Made by a program: the position numbers and the translations under genes
Shown: piece after piece, positions 8,919 to 59,003 of the stretch
Position numbering within the stretch: the first letter of the stretch is position 1
Layout: every line of letters begins with the position of its first letter
The notes under the pieces: model-generated
The model's input: the letters and a program-made list of their open reading frames with translations, nothing else
Databases searched by the model: none
Told to the model about the DNA's origin: nothing
Assembly: GCA_965153455.1 (NCBI GenBank)
Contig: OZ234493.1
Coordinates: 30,060,213 to 30,124,212, forward strand
Origin: Sphagnum compactum
Taxonomy: Eukaryota
Length of the DNA stretch: 64,000 nucleotides
Direction of reading: 5' to 3'

Positions 8919-9390
8919 CATATCCCAAAGGCCAAAATGACCCACGAAAAATATTATGGAACACATCCCAAAACTGATAATTTAAATTTTTGGCATGTCC
9001 CCAAAGGCCAAAATGACAATGAAAAAAAATGAAACACATCCTAAAACCAATTATTTAAATTTTGGACATGTTTCCGAAGGCCAAAATGACCAATGAAAAA
9101 AAATATATATATATGTCCCAAAACCAATAATTAAAATTTTAAGCATGTCCCCAAAGGCCAAAATGAACGATTGAAAAAAATGAAACACATCCCAAATTCA
9201 ATAATTTAAATTTTGGACATGTTCCCAAAGGCCAAAATGACCAATGAAATTTTTTTAAAAATACGTCCCAAAATCAATTATTTAAATTTTGGACATGTCC
9301 CCAAAAGCAAAAATGAAACACATCCCAAATTCAATAATTTAAATTTTGGACATGTCCAAGTACCAAAACAATTTTAAATAACACATCCAA
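8919..9390. repeat. Tandem array of ~75-bp units, about 6 copies
   Basis: CATGTCCCCAAAGGCCAAAATGAC...CACATCCCAAA...ATAATTTAAATTTTGGA recurs at ~8919, 8995, 9068, 9144, 9218 and 9294. Confidence 0.85.
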
Positions 9391-13774: not shown

Positions 13775-13907
13775 ATAGTGGAAGAGCGCATGTGTGAAAT
13801 ATGGTCTACCCCGAAAAAAAATATATACACCAATGAAGACAAGGTATCTCTTTATTTTCACAAAAAAACCTTTTGAAGTTCTTGCACAAAATATATTGGG
13901 CCTACCC

Positions 13908-14174
13908 TGTCATGGCCTAGGATATTTTGGGATACTTTTGGCAATGTCATGTCCTAGGATATTTTTGGATACTTTTGGCAATATCATGGCCTAGGATATT
14001 TTGGGATACTTTTGGCAATATCATGGCCTAGGATATTTTGGGACTAGTATGGCTCAGGGTTATAAAAGGAGATAGTCTGGGGAACAACCCTTTAGCAGAT
14101 CAACACCAGTTGATGGATCAATAAAGCTTGTCTTGTCTTGTAATTCTCCACTTGTTTGTAGTCGGTCCATAACA
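13908..14174 (+). repeat. 5' LTR
   Basis: U3 holds ~3.7 copies of a 37-bp unit TGTCATGGCCTAGGATATTTTGGGATACTTTTGGCAA. TATAAAA at 14061 and AATAAA at 14120. Confidence 0.97.
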
Positions 14175-14315
14175 GTTTGATCTGCTCCTTCTTCTTGTTT
14201 GTTTGTTTTGTTGTTTCAGTAAGTAGCTAGAGGTATATTGGAGTGAAACTTGGAAAGGTTCTAGAAGACTATAGGACGCTTCTACTCTCAAAGTTTCCAA
14301 AGAAAAGGATATGTT

Positions 14316-14658
14316 TTGAGAGAGATCCAAGCATCTGAAGTTTCAAGTGCAGATCTGGTTTTTTGGTCATATCTCCTTTGTGTAAGCTTTTTTGGGTCTG
14401 TAACTTTGTGATCTTATAGATCATATAGGAATATATGTGTGAGAGAAATTTCATGTCATTTGGACTTGTATTGAGAGAGATCCAAGCATCTGAAGTTTCA
14501 AGTGCAGATCTGGTTTTTTGGTCATATCTCCTTTGTTTAAGTTTCTTTCGGTCTGTAACTTTGTGATCTTATAGATCATATAAGAATATATGTGTGAGAG
14601 AAATTTCATGTCATTTGGACTTGTATTGAGAGAGATCCAAGCATCTGAAGTTTCAAGT
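14316..14658 (+). repeat. 155-bp direct repeats in the retrotransposon 5' leader (2 full copies and 1 partial)
   Basis: TTGAGAGAGATCCAAGCATCTGAAGTTTCAAGT starts at 14316, 14471 and 14626. Confidence 0.92.
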
Positions 14659-14696
14659 TTGAAGATTGAAAGCGCAAAAGTGTGAGAATTACCACC

Positions 14697-15671
14697 ATGG
14701 ACAACTCAGAATCCAACATCGATCTCACTCAAATCCTCGCCGCCCTTCAACACCTTCAACAAGAAAATGCCGTGCTTAGAGACTCGGTGACCCGCCTACA
14801 GAATCAGCCACCACCTCCTGCCCCAGTACTTCCTGCTCTTGCAATGGCCGCCCAAGAACCCAAGATCAGTCTGCCAGAAAAGTTTGATGGAACGCGCCTC
14901 AAATTTCGAGGCTTTGTCAGCCAGGTACGCCTGATCATGCAACTACACCCCCGTCGTTATTTTGATAACACCACTCGTGTAGGATTCGTTGGAACCCTAC
15001 TCACTGGGACAGCTGCAGCATGGTTTGCTCCCATCCTGGAAACATCATCCCCTCTTCTACAAGATTTCAACGCCTTTATGGCGGAATTTGAAGCAGTATT
15101 TGGGGACAGTGATAAGGCCAGGACTTCAGCCAACAAGCTGCGTCGCCTCCAGCAAGGGACACGTTCGGCCATCGTCTACGCTTCAGAATTCAGGCAGCTT
15201 GCCTGTGACGTCAATTGGGGAGAAGCTGCCTTGATTGATCAGTTTCGCTGTGGGCTTCGTGATGATGTTCAAGATCTTTTGTTGACACTCGCAGACCCTT
15301 CTTCCTTCAGTGAAGCCATCACCCAGGCAATTCGGTGCGATAATCGTCTGTTCGAACGTCGCCAGGAAAAGAAAGTCACCTCCAACGCCCAGCTTTGGAA
15401 CAGTCGGCCTATTACGCTCCCCTTAGTTCCCCAAACAACACCAGTTGCCCGACCTGCCTCTTTTGGACCTGCTCCGATGCAGATCGACACAGCTAAGTTT
15501 AAATCTTTGACAGAAGCCGAGAAACTTCGCCGAAGGACAAACAATCTATGTCTTTACTGTGGCAACCCAGGGCATATAGCTCGTCAATGCCCTCAAAAGC
15601 TTGTCAAACTTCAGGTACAAGCTGTGGAAACTCCCCAGGAGTTGGAAAACAAGAACATCCAGTCACAGTAG
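14697..15671 (+). CDS. gag: Retrotransposon Gag (PEG10/sushi-like capsid with a CCHC zinc knuckle)
   Basis: ATG in ACCACCATGG context. Motifs PEKFDG, LTGTAAAW, LQQGTRSAIVYASEF, PMQID and CLYCGNPGHIARQC. Uninterrupted ORF. Confidence 0.93.
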   Translation: MDNSESNIDLTQILAALQHLQQENAVLRDSVTRLQNQPPPPAPVLPALAMAAQEPKISLPEKFDGTRLKFRGFVSQVRLIMQLHPRRYFDNTTRVGFVGTLLTGTAAAWFAPILETSSPLLQDFNAFMAEFEAVFGDSDKARTSANKLRRLQQGTRSAIVYASEFRQLACDVNWGEAALIDQFRCGLRDDVQDLLLTLADPSSFSEAITQAIRCDNRLFERRQEKKVTSNAQLWNSRPITLPLVPQTTPVARPASFGPAPMQIDTAKFKSLTEAEKLRRRTNNLCLYCGNPGHIARQCPQKLVKLQVQAVETPQELENKNIQSQ

Positions 15672-18600
15672 GAGCCGTGCGACTGGATCTCACCCAACAC
15701 CACCTTTGCAAAGGCTCCTGTTCCGCTGTTGGTCCCAGTCCCAGTTTCACTCAGTATGTGGACATCATTCGTATTCCAGAAGACATACCACAAGTGTCAG
15801 CTTTGGTGGACTCCGGCGCCACCTCTTCTTTCATCGACCAAACATTTGTCATCCAACACAACATCCCTGTGGTCAAGAAGTCAACCCCTGTTCTGGTAGA
15901 GGTTATTGATGGGAGAACCATTGCTTCTGGTGCAATCACACACGAGACAACCCCTCTAGAACTCTGTATCGGCAAGCACACGGAGAAGATTGTTCTCAAC
16001 ATCATTTCCACCCCTCACCATCCCATCATCCTTGGTCTGCCTTGGCTAGAAGCACACAACCCTATCATTGATTGGCGATCTAGAACCCTCACCTTCAGCG
16101 CACAACGATGCACCTCTCAAGAACCCCACGCTCAGAAAAACAGTTTGTCCAGTCCTGCCAAGAACCCTATGGTCGAGAACCCAAAGAGGGTCGGAACCAA
16201 TTCCAGTTTTATCAAGTCTGTTATGTCAAATCCTGCAGTCAAGAACCCCCGATTGGTCAGAACGAAACCTTGTCCTGTCAAGAATCTTGTCAAGAATTCT
16301 GCCCAAAAAACCAACCATGTCCAGATCTTCGTTGATAGAGCTGTCCCTTTCTATCGGGCTGCTAAGAATCTTCAAGTCTTCGCCATCCATGTCAACCCAG
16401 CCAACACCACAAACCCCCAATCGGAACCAACACCTGTCAAACTTCCCAAGAAGTACAAGGACTTTGTTGATGTTTTTGAAAAGATTAATGCTGATCAGCT
16501 CCCCGCCATAGTCCATATGACTGCCCGATTGATCTAGAAGAAGGACAGTCACCACCCTTTGGTCCTATCTATGGCCTATCGGAACCGGAACTCCAAGCCC
16601 TGCGTGATTACCTTACTGAAAATCTTGCCAAGGGGTTCATTCAGCATTCCAAGTCTCCAGCCGGCGCCCCAATTTTGTTTGTCAAGAAGAAGGATGGCTC
16701 CCTTCGACTTTGTGTGGATTATCGTGGACTCAACAAGATAACCAAAAAGAATCGATATCCTTTGCCCTTGATTTCAGGTCTCCTAGATCGACTACGTACC
16801 GGGAAGATCTTCACCAAGCTTGACCTCCGTGGAGCCTACAACTTACTCAGGATTCGCCCTGGTGATGAATGGAAGACAGCTTTCCGCACACGCTATGGCC
16901 ACTTCGAATACACGGTCATGCCCTTCGGCCTCACCAATGCACCCGCAATCTTTCAGCATCTGATGAATGATATCTTCCGGGATTACATGGACGAATTTGT
17001 CGTGGTCTATTTGGATGACATTTTAATCTTTTCCAAGGACCAGGAAACCCACGACAAACATGTACGATTGGTGCTTGCGACGCTGCGGGAGCATGGCTTA
17101 TACGCCAAGTTGGAAAAATGTGAATTCGACAAATCTTCAGTGGCGTTCCTTAGCTACGTGATCTCTCCAGATGGCATTTTCATGGACAAGTCAAAGGTCG
17201 AGACCATCCAGTGTTGGGCTACTCCATCCTCGGTCAAGGACGTTCAACGCTTCCTAAGGTTTGCCAACTTCTATCGTCGGTTTATCAAAGGCTATTCCAA
17301 GATCACAACACCGTTAATAACCCTGACTTGCAAAGACAAGCCCTTCTCGTGGAATCCAACGGCCCAGGTTGCTTTTGATACTCTCAAGATGGCATTCACC
17401 TCTGCACCCATCCTGATACATCCCGATCCTACCAAGCCATTAATTGTGAAAACAGACGCTTCAGATTTTGCCTTGGGAGCTATTCTATCTCAATTTGGAA
17501 TAGATGGGTTGCTGCATCCAGTTGCTTTCTATTCACGGAAGTTAACCAGTGCCGAAATCAACTACCAGGTCTACGATAAGGAACTCCTGGCAATCATCAC
17601 GGCATTCGAGCAGTGGAGACCGTATCTTGCCGGAGCTCAACATCGAGTCCAAGTTCTGACAGATCACAAGAATCTCCTTTATTTCACAACTACTCGGACC
17701 TTAAATCGTCGCCAGGCACGCTGGTCTATCTTCCTAGCTGATTTCGACTTTGAGATTCAGTATCAACCCGGCACCCAGCAAGGGAAAGCTGACGCGCTAT
17801 CTCGTCGTTCAGAATATGAACTTCGAGCGGGGGATGAGGCTTACGGCCAGCAGAACCAGACTTTACTCAACCCCAAGCAATTTCGAGTTGCAGCAACAAT
17901 CAGCACCCTCCCAGACTCATACCTTGTCAGGGACATCAAGATAGCAACTGAGGAAGACACCTGGGCTACCAACATCAAGAAGGAACTCCAGGAACGACCA
18001 AGGAACCCAAATCGTGATGACTTGGATCAATTTGAGCAGCAAGACGGACTTCTCCTTCGAAATAACCTGATTTATGTACCCGAAGGACTTATACGCCTAA
18101 AAATCCTGAGGGAATGCCACGACAACACCCTGGCAAGTCACTTTGGAATGGCACGGACTCACGAACTAGTGTCAAGGACTTACTGGTGGCCCAAAATGAA
18201 CAAGATGCTACGGGAGTATGTCAAGTCTTGTGATACATGTGCTCGATCCAAGGCTCCCAGGCATCGCCCGTTTGGACTCCTACAGCCTCTGTCGATTCCT
18301 AGCCGACCTTGGGGATCTATTGCAATGGACTTCATCACGGACCTCCCTACTGTCAGAACCAAGAATTCAATACTGGTTGTGGTCGATCGACTCACCAAAA
18401 TGGCCCATTTCACCCCTTGTTCCAAGTCAATCACGGCAGAAGAGACAGCTCAGTTAATTCTGGACGGGATCGTCCGACTGCATGGACTCCCCGAAGAAAT
18501 TGTGTCCAACAGAGGTCCTCAGTTTGCATCCAAGTTCTGGCATCGTCTATTCGAGCTTCTTGGAGTTGACATTCGGCTATCTTTAGCTTTCCACCCTGAG

Positions 18601-19401
18601 ACAAATGGACAAACTGAACGGACAAACCAGACACTCGAGCAATACCTTCGCTGCACTGTGAACTACCAACAGGACGACTGGCTGGACCTACTATCTCAAG
18701 CAGAGTTTGTTTATAATAACACAACACATGCATCGACCGGGATCAGTCCATTCTTTGCCAATTACGGTTTTCATCCCAGGTTCAGCCTTGAAATTCCTGG
18801 AGACTTCGTAAACCCCTCGGCTGAAGAAAGGGCCACGAGGCTTGGACAGGTTCAACAGAACCTTATGGCAGAACTCAAGCTAACACAGGAGTGACAAAAG
18901 AAGCAAGCAGACCGCCGACGCAAGGACCATCCAAACTTCAAGGTTGGAGACAAGGTCTGGCTTCTCAGAAAGAACATTGCTACCACTCGCCCATGTGCCA
19001 AGTTGGATTACAAGCGCCTCCGACCTTTCAAAATCGCCAAATTGGTTGGTCTAGTGGCTTGCCAGTTGGAGCTTCCACCCCAGTTCAAAATCCACAATGT
19101 TTTCCATGTCTCCCTGCTTGAACCCTATCATGAAAACCCGATCCCAGAACGTCATCAAGAACCCCCAGCTCTAGTCGAAATTGAAGGCCAAGAAGAGTTT
19201 GAAGTTCAGGAGGTCTTGGACTCCAAGAAGATTCGTGGAAAGCTCCTGTACCTTGTCTTTTGGCGAGGTTATCCTCCTTCTGAAGCTACTTGGGAGCCTG
19301 CTGGAAACCTAGTTCATGCCCAAGACTTAGTTAATCGGTTTCACCAACGATATCCTAACAAACCGGCTCCATCTAGAAGATGTCCCTTGAGGAGAGGATA
19401 A
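15644..19401 (+). pseudogene. pol: Retrotransposon Pol (protease, RT, RNase H, integrase, chromodomain) with a frameshift and a nonsense codon
   Basis: Motifs ALVDSGAT (PR), LRLCVDYRGLN and VYLDDILIF (RT), TDASDFALG (RH), H-H-C-C zinc finger, IAMDFITDLP (IN), and EFEVQEVLD...YLVFWRGYPPSEATWEP (chromodomain). A 1-nt deletion lies near 16501-16507 and an in-frame TGA at 18892. Confidence 0.93.
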
Positions 19402-19668
19402 TGTCATGGCCTAGGATATTTTGGGATACTTTTGGCAATGTCATGTCCTAGGATATTTTGGGATACTTTTGGCAATATCATGGCCTAGGATATTTTGGGA
19501 TACTTTTGGCAATATCATGGCCTAGGATATTTTGGGACTAGTATGGCTCAGGGTTATAAAAGGAGATAGTCTAGGGAACAACCCTTTAGCAGATCAACAC
19601 CAGTTGATGGATCAATAAAGCTTGTCTTGTCTTGTAATTCTCCACTTGTTTGTAGTCGGTCCATAACA
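19402..19668 (+). repeat. 3' LTR
   Basis: 265/267 identical to the 5' LTR and followed by the TSD TACCC. Confidence 0.97.
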
Positions 19669-20514
19669 TACCCATCTTGATGTGGTACTGTTGGGAACCA
19701 CTTCACTGAAATCCAAAAAAAGGTGGACCTAGTCTAATTTAATTAAAGAAATTTAATGTTTTTAAATTTTCATTTTTATTGTTGATTTGCATCGTGTGGG
19801 TTTTTTGTTCCCCACCTATGTGTACACACTATGGAAAAATGGTTGACACTTACATAAGTTACACAATTTTGTGTTAAGAAATTTGTGTTCCTAAAATGTT
19901 CATGACATCATGTGTTCTTGAAATTTTTGACCCCTTATCATTAAGTGTCAAGTTGCACCATTGTGTGTGTGTGTGTGTGTGTGTACTATAATATTTAGGG
20001 TATGGCCCCAATTGTTGATTGAAATAAAAAAATGGGAATTACTACAAATTTGTAGAAATGAATGTAATGGTCCTTCAAAACCAAGCCTATTTTTAACCTT
20101 CAGAAATTGCTCAAAAATATATGATTGCTTCAATCCATTATTTATTAATCAAATAAAAAAGAGGACCATATTAGTCCCTATTGGAATTTTAAAGCCTTAA
20201 AAAAACTGAAAAAACGTATTCCTTTTGTGTTCATGAACAAAAGAACCTAAAGTGTTACTTTCTTGAAAAAAATTCCTTGAGCACTCATTTGGAATATTAA
20301 AATTTATGTTTTTGATATCTAGTTAAATTTAAAATTCCACATGACTTGGGTAATCTTTTGATATAAAATTTCAAGCAAAAAAATTTCTTTAAATGAGTCT
20401 AATCATGTTGTCCTGAAATTAAACGGGTTTAAGAAATTTGGGTTGTGACATTGCTAATGGTGTCACCCAAGGATGGGTTTGCCTTAATCTAACCTTTCGT
20501 TTTTGCCTTTATAT

Positions 20515-33450: not shown

Positions 33451-33607
33451 AAAAACCGCAGCGTGAGTACCTACTAGGTACAACAATAAACTAAGGCATT
33501 CCAGCTAACTCCAGAAAATAATTTAAACCACCAATTCTAACAATCTCATTGGCCCCAAGCTTTTTTCTCACATTTTGAACTCAGAGACCCTGATTTATCT
33601 AGTCTAA

Positions 33608-33990
33608 GAGCGTCTCCAGCGGTGCTCAGTATGTGATCGTGCACAGTAGAATTGGATGAAGAAAACTGAAAATGTGCCGGTTTGGCTCAAGAAAATGGTT
33701 TTGGGTCGGCGTAATTACACAGTTTGCGGTGGCTGGTACAAGGCACAGCAACACTGCACATGGAGAAAAGAGTGTAATAAATATGATCTGACTGCTCAGT
33801 GTTTTTGAGTGTTTTTGATTGGCCCATCGTAATGATTGGTCCAAGTGGTTTGCTATCAATAGTCCCCCCACCTATTTGCTGTCCCAGTTTCACTTTTATG
33901 GGTGGGGTCGCAAAAAAGTAAATAACTAAACTTGGATGTGAAAAATATTTTTGCAGGGTCACGTTATAATGAGCAAGGCTGGAGTTACTC
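33608..33990. mobile_element. Tourist-like (PIF/Harbinger) MITE
   Basis: Ends GAGCGTCTCCAGC and GCTGGAGTTACTC with TAA on both sides. Homologous copies at 53434-53789 and ~52343-52545. Confidence 0.8.
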
Positions 33991-44617: not shown

Positions 44618-45025
44618 GTGCATTATGCGCAGGCCACAGTGAACCCACACCCACCAGCGCACCATCCACTGGATGCCTGTTATAACTCAGTTGTGGATGA
44701 ACCTCAACTGAGTTAATATTTGGTTTCACCTTGGTAACCAATATTGTGGGAAATAGGTCTCTCATATAGGTAAATAGGTAGGAAAATAGGCAACTAGTAG
44801 GTACATAGATGGTTTACACATAGTTAAGGGCTGTATTTACTTCTTACCTACTAACAACCCACTTGTGGTTGATTAGTAGGTAGGTTTTTTTAAAAACAAC
44901 TGAGCTAACCACCATGGTTAGCTAGGGAACTGAAACTCAACAGAAAATTGTTTCCTGATCACTTATCATTCATCCTTCATGGTGCACTGGTGGGTGCTGG
45001 TTCACCGTGGCCGTGAATTATGCAC
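44618..45025. mobile_element. MITE with ~45-bp imperfect TIRs
   Basis: Left end TGCATTATGCGCAGGCCACAGTGAACC...CACCCACCAGCGCACCAT, inverted at the right end as ATGGTGCACTGGTGGGTGCTGGTTCACCGTGGCCGTGAATTATGCA. Relatives at ~25740-25900, ~40050-40270 and ~51130-51830. Confidence 0.7.
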
Positions 45026-51118: not shown

Positions 51119-53433
51119 GTATGAACCTCTCTTGAGTTGAGTTTGGGTTTCACCTGGGTAACCTGTGTTGTGAAGGATGAAAATTACATGATGGGCTTTC
51201 TATGTATGTATGTATAATAATAGTTAGCTACTAGGTAAGTAGATGTAGGTACCTAGATTGCTAGTACAAAAGTAGGGCTAGTTGGGTTATTAGTAGGTAG
51301 GTAATGAAAACAGAAATCCAGGTAACCACTGAGGTTAGCCAGGGAATTCAAACCAGTGTTTTTATAAAAATTTCGCCAAATTTCAACCTGAAAAACACTA
51401 TTGCAACTGAGTTTCATGGGAAAAATGGCCCAAGTTTGCAAGATTTCAAAGAAAAACTAAAAATCCAAATCACCAGATTTTTGTGATAAGAAGTTCCAGT
51501 AGGTAGCCAAGAATATAGAATGATTCTGTTTTTCTTTTTTCTTTTTTCTTTTTTTTTAAAAAGCTTTCATATCTAGTATGTAGCCACATTTGAATAACTT
51601 TTTCTGGATGATTGCCAATTTTAACTCCATCACAAAATCCTTTAGAAAACCCCTTAGGGTTACTACTTACCTACTTACTAACAACCCACAAGCAGGTCGT
51701 TAGGAGGTAGGTAGTAAAGAAAAGCAACCCAGCTAACCACCATGGTTAGCTAGGGAACTGAAACCCAACAGAAAACTGTTTCCTGACCACTTACCATCCA
51801 TCCTTCATGGTGTGCTGGTGGGTGCTTTTTGGCTATTTGGTAAGTGAACTTTTGTGACTATCTGTAAAGCTAAGAGTGGAAAAACAAACACCTATTTACC
51901 CTAAACCCTAGTTACACATTAATTCATTATTTATGAATTTTCCAGAAATTCTGAAAAATAACTACCTGCCAAACTCTAGAGCATACTAGCTTCATTTTTT
52001 AGTATAGTGTCTAATTGTAAAATATTATTATTGTTAATGCCAAAGTTAAACGTCTAAAATATTATTATTATTATTATTATTATGCACCTTGTTGCCGAAC
52101 CAGCCCAGGTACTATGGTAGTAATTTTGAAAGTTTAGAAAGCCCAATTTGCAACTCAATTTTTACATATTTATGCCTGCCATGTGTGGGGGGGTATCAAA
52201 GGCCAGGAGGGTCCCTCTCTGGGTTGTAACTTGTAACGAATTTCCTAAACAATTGGGCCTCTCAACTTCCACCGCTTGTGAAACATTCACCCCTTAACTC
52301 TGGTAAAGTAATTAACGTTAGGCCATGTCCTTCTTCCTCTAGAGAAGAGTGTACTAAATATGATCTGACTGCTTTGCTCCTTGTTTCTGATTGGCCAAAC
52401 ATATTGATTGGTCCAGGTGGTTTACTATTAGTAGTTCCCACATAATTGCAGTCCCAATTTCAGTTTTATCGGTGGGGTTGCAAAAAAGTAAATAACTAAA
52501 GTTGGATGTGAGAAATTTTTTGGGTAAGCACTGGTGGCGATGCTCTTAGTCCCACAATTTGTGCCCCTGCCATTAGCCCAGACCAAAAAGGGTGACAAAC
52601 AGTTTTGGAAATAAAAGTTTCATACAGCCAATGAGAACGCTCAGCATGCACCCATGAGGGGTCCAGTTTTTTTCTTTAAGGGGGGGGGGGAGGGATTTTT
52701 CCGCTTTTTTCCTTGTTCCTGTCATGTTCTCATGGTGATCCCCAAGTTCGCAAGACGTTCCCAATAGTACCTCAGACTTATCTCAAAGTTCAACTCTCAT
52801 GAATGTAAGCTGAAAAGTTGGGCCATAGTGGAGGACATTTGTTTCTAATTTGCAATTTGGGGCCATTTGAGGTGCTTCTATTGTGGAGTGCCCAATGTTC
52901 CAAAACAATTGGTGATGGGCCAATCAATATGGCTCATTGCTCACAAAATAAAATCATTCCTTTACCTATTTAGTCCATCAAATGTTTGACTATTATATTG
53001 TTAGCTACCATCCACCCTTTATGGCACATACTAATTTCATTTGTGTTAAGCATTGGGAGACATTTCCTAAGAATATTTGGAAGACACCTTATATTCAACA
53101 TTTTGTTTTCTGAAAAATTTTGTTGCCTTTTTTTCTACCAAAATTTTGATATTTGTTGGGAAATTTTTGGTATCGGATTTTTTTAAATTCCTAGTGTAAA
53201 TTTGAGTTATTTTTCTCATTTAGGGGAAATGTTTTCTAATAATAAATGAAAAAAAAAACCTTTCTTTACGTCGATGAATATGCCTCCTAAATCACAAGGA
53301 ACGAACTTACACCTATTATTTAGGAGGGGCCAGAATCCTACAGCTACTTCTAGGTGTTAGGCCATTCCCATGTGATGTGTGTGTGTGTGTTTACCATTAT
53401 AATAAGGTTTTTCTTGTGCTTTACAATGGGTAA

Positions 53434-53789
53434 GAGCATCCCCACCAGTGCTCAGTATGTGACCCTGCACATTAAAATCAGAGGAAGAAATGTCAACATA
53501 TGCCGGTTTAGGAAAATGGTTTTGGCTAAGTATAATTGCAGAGTTTGCGGTAGTTGGTAAAAGGCAGTTCAAGGATGTGCGCTGCAGAAAAGAGTGTAAT
53601 AGCTACTACTCAGTGTTCCTGATTGGCCCCATCATAATGATTGGCCCAGGTGGTTTGCTATTAGTAGTCCCTCACCTATTTGCTATCCCAGTTTCAGTTT
53701 TATGAGTGGAGTTGCAAAAATATAAATAATTAAACTTGGATGTGAAAAATATTTTTTGAGGGTACTAAGCACCACCGTAGGAGTTGCTC
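53434..53789. mobile_element. Tourist-like MITE, homolog of 33608-33990
   Basis: TAA|GAGCATCCCCACC start and GGAGTTGCTC end. Internal blocks collinear with the 33.6-kb copy. Confidence 0.72.
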
Positions 53790-58129: not shown

Positions 58130-58700
58130 ACTCAAAACCTGCCATCTCTGTTATCACTAACTAGTTTACTAACCACTTTACTAACTACTATCCCTAGTAA
58201 GTTACCTGCAGTGTGCCTTTGCTAATTCCTTATACAACTGTACTGAACTACCCGGAACCTGCCTCTGTGCCATCACTAACTACTTTGCTAACCACTGTAC
58301 TAACTACGATGACTAGTGAGTTCCCCTCGCCTGGGTAATTCATTAACGACTCTACTACTTAAAACTACTTATGAATCACTAAGTACTTTACTAACCACTT
58401 TACTAACTGCCATGTGTGCCATCACTACCCACTTCACTAATTACCGTGACTAGTGTGAGTCACCTACTCCGCCTGCTAGCCTAATTCATAAAGCACCTTC
58501 ACTAAATTACTCAAAGCCTGCCATCTGTCTGGGTTATCAATAACTACTTTACTAACTACTTTACTAACTACAGTGAGTAGTAAGCTAACTACCCCCGCCT
58601 GCTAGCTTAATTCATAAACAACTTTACTAAATACTACACAAACCCTGCCATCTGTCTGTGTTTCTTACTAACTACTTTACTAACCACGTTCCTAACTACT
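58130..58700. repeat. Higher-order tandem repeat (~120-130-bp units made of TACTTTACTAAC subunits) upstream of PFK
   Basis: CCTGCCATCT(G) anchors near 58138, 58258, 58517 and 58644, each followed by (T)ACTAAC(T/C)AC runs. Confidence 0.8.
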
Positions 58701-59003
58701 TCTCCTCGGGAAGCTCACGGAATTGACTGAAGAAGAATAAGCGCGTTAAAGAAGGAAGGAAGAGCGAGCGTTGCAACCACAACGTGGCGATCCGACACAG
58801 TGCAGTCGTCGTTTGTGGTTGCAGCAGTTGTTTTAGGAGCGCATTTTAGAGCAGAATTTCGGCGTCATGTCCCGGTGCCGAGCGATCCAAGCAACCGCCA
58901 TATATTGCTGACGCATGCAGGGAGCTTGAAATCGTCTCGATCGGTGAAGTATTAAGTCCTTTATTTTTGCAAGAATCAGAGTGGTGTGGTGAATGTTTTT
59001 GCT

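Follow-up and report, generated by a model that had tools for sequence, protein, structure and literature searches.

Evidence that a Tcn1-type chromovirus of Sphagnum compactum probably primes reverse transcription with the 5' end of its own RNA

The chromovirus described here most probably primes reverse transcription with the first 10 nt of its own RNA, in the manner of Tf1. From the sequence evidence, we estimate the probability of this reading at about 0.92. The earlier note had proposed it, and the proposal is now supported by covariation of primer and primer-binding site (PBS), by a search that returned no fitting tRNA gene, and by an LTR–LTR junction that fixes the primer 3' end. The element lies at positions 13908–19668 of the window, i.e., the whole 64,000-nt stretch of DNA analyzed, with the following features:

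13903–13907, + strand: left target-site duplication (TSD) TACCC, identical 5-mer at 19669–19673
13908–14174, + strand: 5' LTR, 267 bp, TG...CA, with U3 made of 37-bp tandem units
14061–14067, + strand: TATA box TATAAAA; 42 nt from its first base to the primer 3' end in three families
14094–14103, + strand: predicted self-primer AGCAGATCAA, predicted RNA nt 1–10 counted from the putative transcription start
14099–14114, + strand: 6-bp hairpin overlapping the primer, transient only
14105–14119, + strand: R segment predicted to pair with the U5 end plus GT (14165–14176), lengthening the primer helix; second 'pretzel' duplex, weak statistics
14120–14125, + strand: AATAAA polyadenylation-like signal
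14175–14176, + strand: GT separating LTR from PBS; to judge by the LTR–LTR junction, these two bases extend the right end of the linear cDNA
14177–14186, + strand: PBS TTGATCTGCT, without TGG
14307–14616, + strand: leader with two 155-bp tandem units, their number copy-dependent
14697–15671, + strand: gag (Retrotrans_gag, Ty3_capsid, zf-CCHC)
15503–16537, + strand: protease frame, overlapping gag; frame break before the reverse transcriptase (RT) in the window copy
16495–18894, + strand: RT, RNase H and integrase; in-frame TGA at the end in the window copy
18895–19401, + strand: integrase C-terminus (SH3_Tf2-1) and chromodomain
19389–19398, + strand: polypurine tract, followed by T and then by the AA of the left cDNA end
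19402–19668, + strand: 3' LTR
19669–19673, + strand: right TSD TACCC

The element is a Ty3/gypsy chromovirus of 5761 bp and of the Tcn1 type, which stands on the fungal/vertebrate Tf1/sushi side, here in a moss host. Its LTRs have TG...CA ends, measure 267 bp each and differ at 2 positions (0.7% divergence in the window copy), and the 5-bp TSD TACCC flanks them on both sides. Pfam domains comprise Gag with a zinc knuckle, protease, RT, RNase H, integrase, SH3_Tf2-1 and a chromodomain. They follow the order GAG-PROT-RT-RH-INT with the chromodomain C-terminal and gag overlapping pol. At the positions that we take to form the aromatic cage, the chromodomain translation has F, W and Y. In other copies the pol frame extends over 1299 codons; in the window copy it is broken before RT and stopped late in the integrase. 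The family is young and abundant, with 253 exact-pattern matches to the normal LTR junction in the genome. Among its copies, LTRs of 230, 267 or 304 bp occur, U3 (13908–14050 in the window copy) differing by 37-bp units, and LTR and ATG lie about 370 to 1144 nt apart, with increments of 155 nt. Unrelated to the element, the window also holds degenerate tandem arrays at 8923–9316 and 58145–58718 (units of about 75 bp and of 60–120 bp). Dispersed short repeats, possibly small DNA elements, are common to its distant parts (33605–33959, 52435–53763, 44866–44998, 51283–51826).

In RT-RNase H, the element is 67–68% identical to two fungal proteins, 57–61% to four vertebrate proteins and 45–48% to two seed-plant proteins. 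A midpoint-rooted tree of 21 rows, none of them a named Tcn1 element, groups it with fungi and vertebrates, apart from the seed-plant rows and from a second chromovirus family of the same genome (support 100/98). Sequencing runs containing the element sequence are labelled as moss or plant metagenomes, and the named Gag homologs come from Sphagnum. In agreement with the REXdb description of Tcn1, we found a 5-bp TSD, a size within 5.5–9.4 kb and a self-primer of at least 10 nt starting 0–5 nt past the LTR. The nearest solved relative in the PDB is Ty3, with nothing on priming.

Downstream of the 5' LTR, the sequence continues with GT and then with TTGATCTGCT (14177–14186), so that the TGG of a tRNA-type PBS is absent, as the earlier note had claimed. 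Its further observation also holds that this core is the exact reverse complement of AGCAGATCAA inside the LTR, and that the latter begins at 14094, 33 nt past the TATAAAA at 14061. The PBS thus starts 2 nt past the LTR and pairs over 10 nt. When the 20 nt after the LTR were compared with Markov-shuffled LTRs, a match of at least 10 nt arose in 4/5000 trials. Under a looser null of random window 267-mers with their next 20 nt, which takes in low-complexity DNA and the true site itself, it arose in 221/20000. In predicted folds, the primer–PBS helix has a pairing probability near 1 for any RNA start from 14088 to 14098. A contig that begins at 14097 was left unused as a sign of the transcription start, because contigs cannot show starts and the run is only guessed to be RNA.

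The tRNA-primed plant chromoviruses (Tekay, Reina, Galadriel, CRM) are recognized by a PBS with TGG and complementarity to a tRNA 3' end, neither of which was seen here. In search of a tRNA gene with a suitable 3' end, a genome-wide pattern that joins a T-loop to the 3' end needed, and so covers tRNAs with a canonical T-loop, returned 13 sites, and none of the 13 is a tRNA gene. This pattern was used since a catalog of 69 distinct tRNA genes failed its positive control: the PBS of the second chromovirus family reached at best 8/12 in it, marking the catalog as incomplete. Within these 69 genes, the longest internal match to the PBS of the window element is 7–8 nt. The second family, whose TGG-type PBS is presumably of the tRNA-Met form, also served as a negative control and shows an LTR match of only 6 nt. 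It is itself young (L244, L097, L068–L080), with LTRs of 0.8–1.0 kb and a single frame spanning about 1505 codons; many chromodomain matches of its score lie on C17, C19 and C20.

The point at which minus-strand DNA begins can be read from the one LTR–LTR junction in the genome, CA-GT-AA-TG at G000:C12:9637603–9637627 (n = 1). Minus-strand DNA accordingly starts at GT, right where the PBS begins, which places the primer 3' end, CAA rather than CCA, opposite 14177. A mature tRNA would need a mismatch at its second-last base to end in CAA. This junction lies within an inverted tail of the element L242 (G000:C12:9637141–9643135), which ends in an inverted LTR with the TSD GGTAG.

Pairing of primer and PBS is maintained where the sequences change. 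From 150 loci we aligned 72 rows, duplicates and near-identical copies included; 13 loci without a Gag match, 24 with too little upstream DNA, 39 without a U5/PBS anchor and 2 without a primer anchor were dropped. The helix is perfect in 43 rows, 7 contain wobble pairs only, and 22, one of them misaligned, have at least one mismatch. These mismatches are mostly G>A or C>T, as decay after insertion would give. At window position 14184 in the PBS, G>A recurs in at least seven rows of other copies, in a CHG context, probably as methylation-driven decay. In subfamily B one pair is altered on both sides, from U-A to C-G: the 71 aligned rows show 59 T-A, 11 C-G and one T-G but no C-A, which we counted as a single event.

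More distant relatives extend this picture, with one element each for families C and D. Family C (L066, RT 80% identical) has the 11-nt primer ACTCTCGTCAA and a matching PBS; 5/10 primer positions differ and every one is paired. Family D (L303, RT 70% identical), a eukaryotic-type contig within a bacterial bin, has the 12-nt primer CAGTCTCGACAA with a fully paired PBS, and its geometry was reproduced in 0/400 shuffles. Families A, C and D alike have a primer ending in CAA 42 nt past the TATA start and a PBS preceded by CA-GT. Their paired segments begin at TATA +33, +32 and +31, respectively, which leaves the transcription start uncertain by about 2 nt. Plant initiators follow a pyrimidine–purine step, and such a step lies at the primer start or within 1 nt of it in all three families. 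Pairing is hence kept across four primer sequences, from two subfamilies and two other families, as compensatory change would have it.

A de novo scan of 24 contaminant or viral contigs found complements at TATA +31/32 with an offset of 2 in L303 and L301 and at TATA +37 in L339; the remaining 21/24 had none or were off-geometry. L301 (43% identity) and L339 were set aside as support. In the genome, searches for diverged Gag/Pol and for Ty3_capsid returned almost only the family of the window element, and several diverged loci had no LTR pair inside the stretch examined. Viral contigs gave no match with Gag and two with Pol. The 44 Ty3/gypsy matches inside bacterial and archaeal genome bins (L303–L346) are probably eukaryotic contamination of these bins.

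We next consider the RNA structures around the primer. The small hairpin that had been suggested to compete with primer pairing does exist at 14099–14114 (6 bp, −5.3 kcal/mol alone), but it is no competitor at equilibrium. Transcripts extending no further than 14180 give it a predicted probability of 0.65–1.0, and in those extended to 14183 this value has dropped to about 0; the hairpin is thus at most a transient co-transcriptional structure. We rejected it as a regulator, given its probability of about 0 with the PBS present and its weakening in subfamily B (−2.6 kcal/mol) without compensatory change. The R/U5 duplex has a probability of 0.97 in the predicted fold, and its comparison with shuffles is borderline (30/500 and 29/500; family C 73/500 with the 3' LTR). 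With the mutated 5' LTR of family C, 480/500 shuffles do as well. The U5/leader duplex, the third of the Tf1 'pretzel', is unsupported, with shuffles as good in 106/300 (A), 151/300 (B) and 247/300 (C), in a test that a short duplex could escape. The Tf1 primer has 11 nt. The window element differs from Tf1 in its 10-nt primer and in the lack of support for a U5/leader duplex within the three-duplex 'pretzel'.

Taken as Tf1-type self-priming, the process might run as follows. Transcription would start about 32–33 nt past the TATA box, at 14094 or within 2 nt of it. RNA nt 1–10 would fold onto the PBS 83 nt away and displace the small hairpin, while R, in the predicted fold, would pair further with the U5 end. 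By analogy with Tf1, the element's own RT/RNase H would cut the RNA between 14103 and 14104; an RNase H domain is present according to Pfam. The new 3'-OH would then prime minus-strand DNA at the G-T just past the LTR, a start point shown by the single LTR–LTR junction. As in Tf1, the plus strand would presumably copy the primer into the PBS, by which primer and PBS could change together between families, as is seen.

Other primers were weighed against this reading. The primer sequence might be the element's own but act in trans, derive from the 3' R copy or belong to a longer RNA started upstream. Four of the seven aberrant copies described below would fit this, as they carry an inverted U3 right after the PBS as if U3 had been attached to the primer. 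However, aberrant copies make up about 5%, set against the 253 normal junctions, and the fixed TATA-to-primer distance together with the pyrimidine–purine step in three families fits a 5'-terminal primer, so that we regard this alternative as very unlikely. We give even less credence to priming by a tRNA, a tRNA half or another small RNA of the host, with the LTR complement being only structural (packaging, dimerization, translation control). Internal tRNA fragments would find room genome-wide in the incompleteness of the 69-gene catalog, but its longest internal matches are short and none of the 13 pattern sites is a tRNA gene. Moreover, four different PBS sequences would call for as many host primers, and every one of these would need a counterpart in the LTR at a constant distance from the TATA box.

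Seven elements of the family contain eight junctions in which U3 plus primer is joined directly to minus-strand U5, versus 253 normal ones. The loci concerned are:

G000:C1:15700343
G000:C2:20802305
G000:C2:20808111
G000:C6:1057282
G000:C10:9134440
G000:C10:12869089
G000:C12:9637448
G000:C14:876058

In L081, L240, L242 and L243, an inverted U3 follows the PBS and then a jump leads into the leader. The inverted U3 is 68 to several hundred nt long and in one copy runs through an LTR–LTR junction into the internal 3' end. In L065, L098 and L241, the 5' LTR doubles back on itself over 6, 20 and about 35 nt. L081 and L242 have an inverted U3 with a TSD as their right end, so that their formation predates integration. 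Simple inversion should also leave the reciprocal junction, which occurs 0 times (7:0, p = 0.016). Two control 10-nt inverted repeats, about equally conserved, gave one event and none, versus seven at primer/PBS (p = 0.003 if the three repeats were equal). The control event joins the inverted repeat of TATA region and leader in L282, an element with odd ends. In L282 (G000:C13:12833250–12839520), both ends are inverted, with the U5 end left and the U3 end right, in a T-run. In a misdirected first strand transfer, its minus-strand U5-R has jumped to an internal site that shares a 12-nt homology at R nt 8–19. This jump would fit a template already cut at nt 10/11, and homology alone could also explain it.

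The aberrant copies seem to preserve traces of one of two processes, self-priming by U3-tailed primers or template switching. That about 5% of the family's genomic copies record self-priming, the minus strand having been primed by U3-carrying RNA cut at R nt 10/11, is a tentative reading that we hold to be somewhat doubtful. Such RNA might come from an upstream start, from read-through of a two-LTR junction or from the 3' R. Its tail would be copied after the PBS, sometimes yielding an inverted U3 end that integrase accepts. We give roughly even odds to RT template switching of nascent plus-strand DNA at the 10-nt inverted repeat or, in the three short cases, to local switching in host replication, in either case without RNA cleavage. 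This explanation concerns the aberrant copies only and is compatible with self-priming. Its odds follow from the control event, since the like junction found once at a control 10-nt repeat (L282) shows that RT switches templates at such repeats. In addition, the L081 tail stops exactly at the U3 start, as a plus strand primed at the polypurine tract would give. The excess of events at primer/PBS over both controls and the lack of the reciprocal junction speak against it, and the inverted-U3 ends with TSD rule out host-level switching for L081 and L242. The junctions may also be assembly artefacts. None was seen in 80 metagenome loci, of which only 23 had both anchors, with about one junction expected; against an artefact stand the TSDs, perfect over 5 bp in six of the seven copies and 4/5 in one.

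Self-priming itself is not new, as the available text of Neumann et al. (2019, PMC6317226) already predicts it for this plant clade. According to this text, a tRNA PBS is missing from most moss and club-moss Tcn1 elements, and self-priming is predicted for 83% of 1500, the criterion being an LTR complement of at least 10 nt that starts 0–5 nt past the LTR. The window element agrees with these plant Tcn1 elements in moss host, chromodomain, gag overlapping pol, 5-bp TSD and missing tRNA PBS, and with 5761 bp it falls within their range of 5466–9444 bp. This text gives a blastn prediction, whereas TATA geometry, covariation, cDNA-end junction and aberrant copies come from the present analysis; its per-element table may already hold relatives. 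SM-Tcn1 of Selaginella is likewise a Tcn1-type element of a non-seed plant, of 5.7 kb and without a tRNA PBS. Its Gag has 323 aa, and no primer was found for it in the accessible part of the report (Novikova et al. 2010, PMC2864245). TAR-lineage elements (Houba, Osr-1) are also plant elements with an LTR-complementary PBS and predicted self-priming, but they are Ty1/copia without a chromodomain and form a separate lineage, as stated in the portion of PMC6317226 at hand.

The likeness extends to fungi and vertebrates. The elements Tf1/Tf2 of Schizosaccharomyces pombe, with Tosmo, Tcry1, Tj1 and sushi of the Tf1/sushi group, have a PBS complementary to the RNA 5' end and R/U5 pairing adjoining it (PMC10085805, PMC4600332, PMC5341516, PMC11042837). 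The window element resembles them in an RT related to fungal and vertebrate elements, in a PBS complementary to the predicted RNA 5' end and, in the predicted fold, in R/U5 pairing that is borderline against shuffles. For Tf2, a switch of the transcript 5' end between conditions has been described (PMC5341516). About half of Tf1 cDNA retains a PBS copy at its end, according to the available part of PMC11042837; in contrast, the one junction of the window family shows clean removal of this copy. In the literature searched, which was largely open access, the aberrant junction is unreported; if anything here is new, it may be these aberrant copies alone.

In plants, self-priming has so far stood on blastn prediction, and the literature searched yielded no experimental test of it in a plant. 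Being young and abundant, with covarying primers, the family is a good place to test this prediction in native tissue. If the aberrant copies are fossils of self-priming, then self-priming would not require a 5'-terminal primer. Provided that they record priming and not plain template switching, they would also give a sequence-only readout of the cut site; for any self-priming family, genome assemblies would then suffice to locate it.
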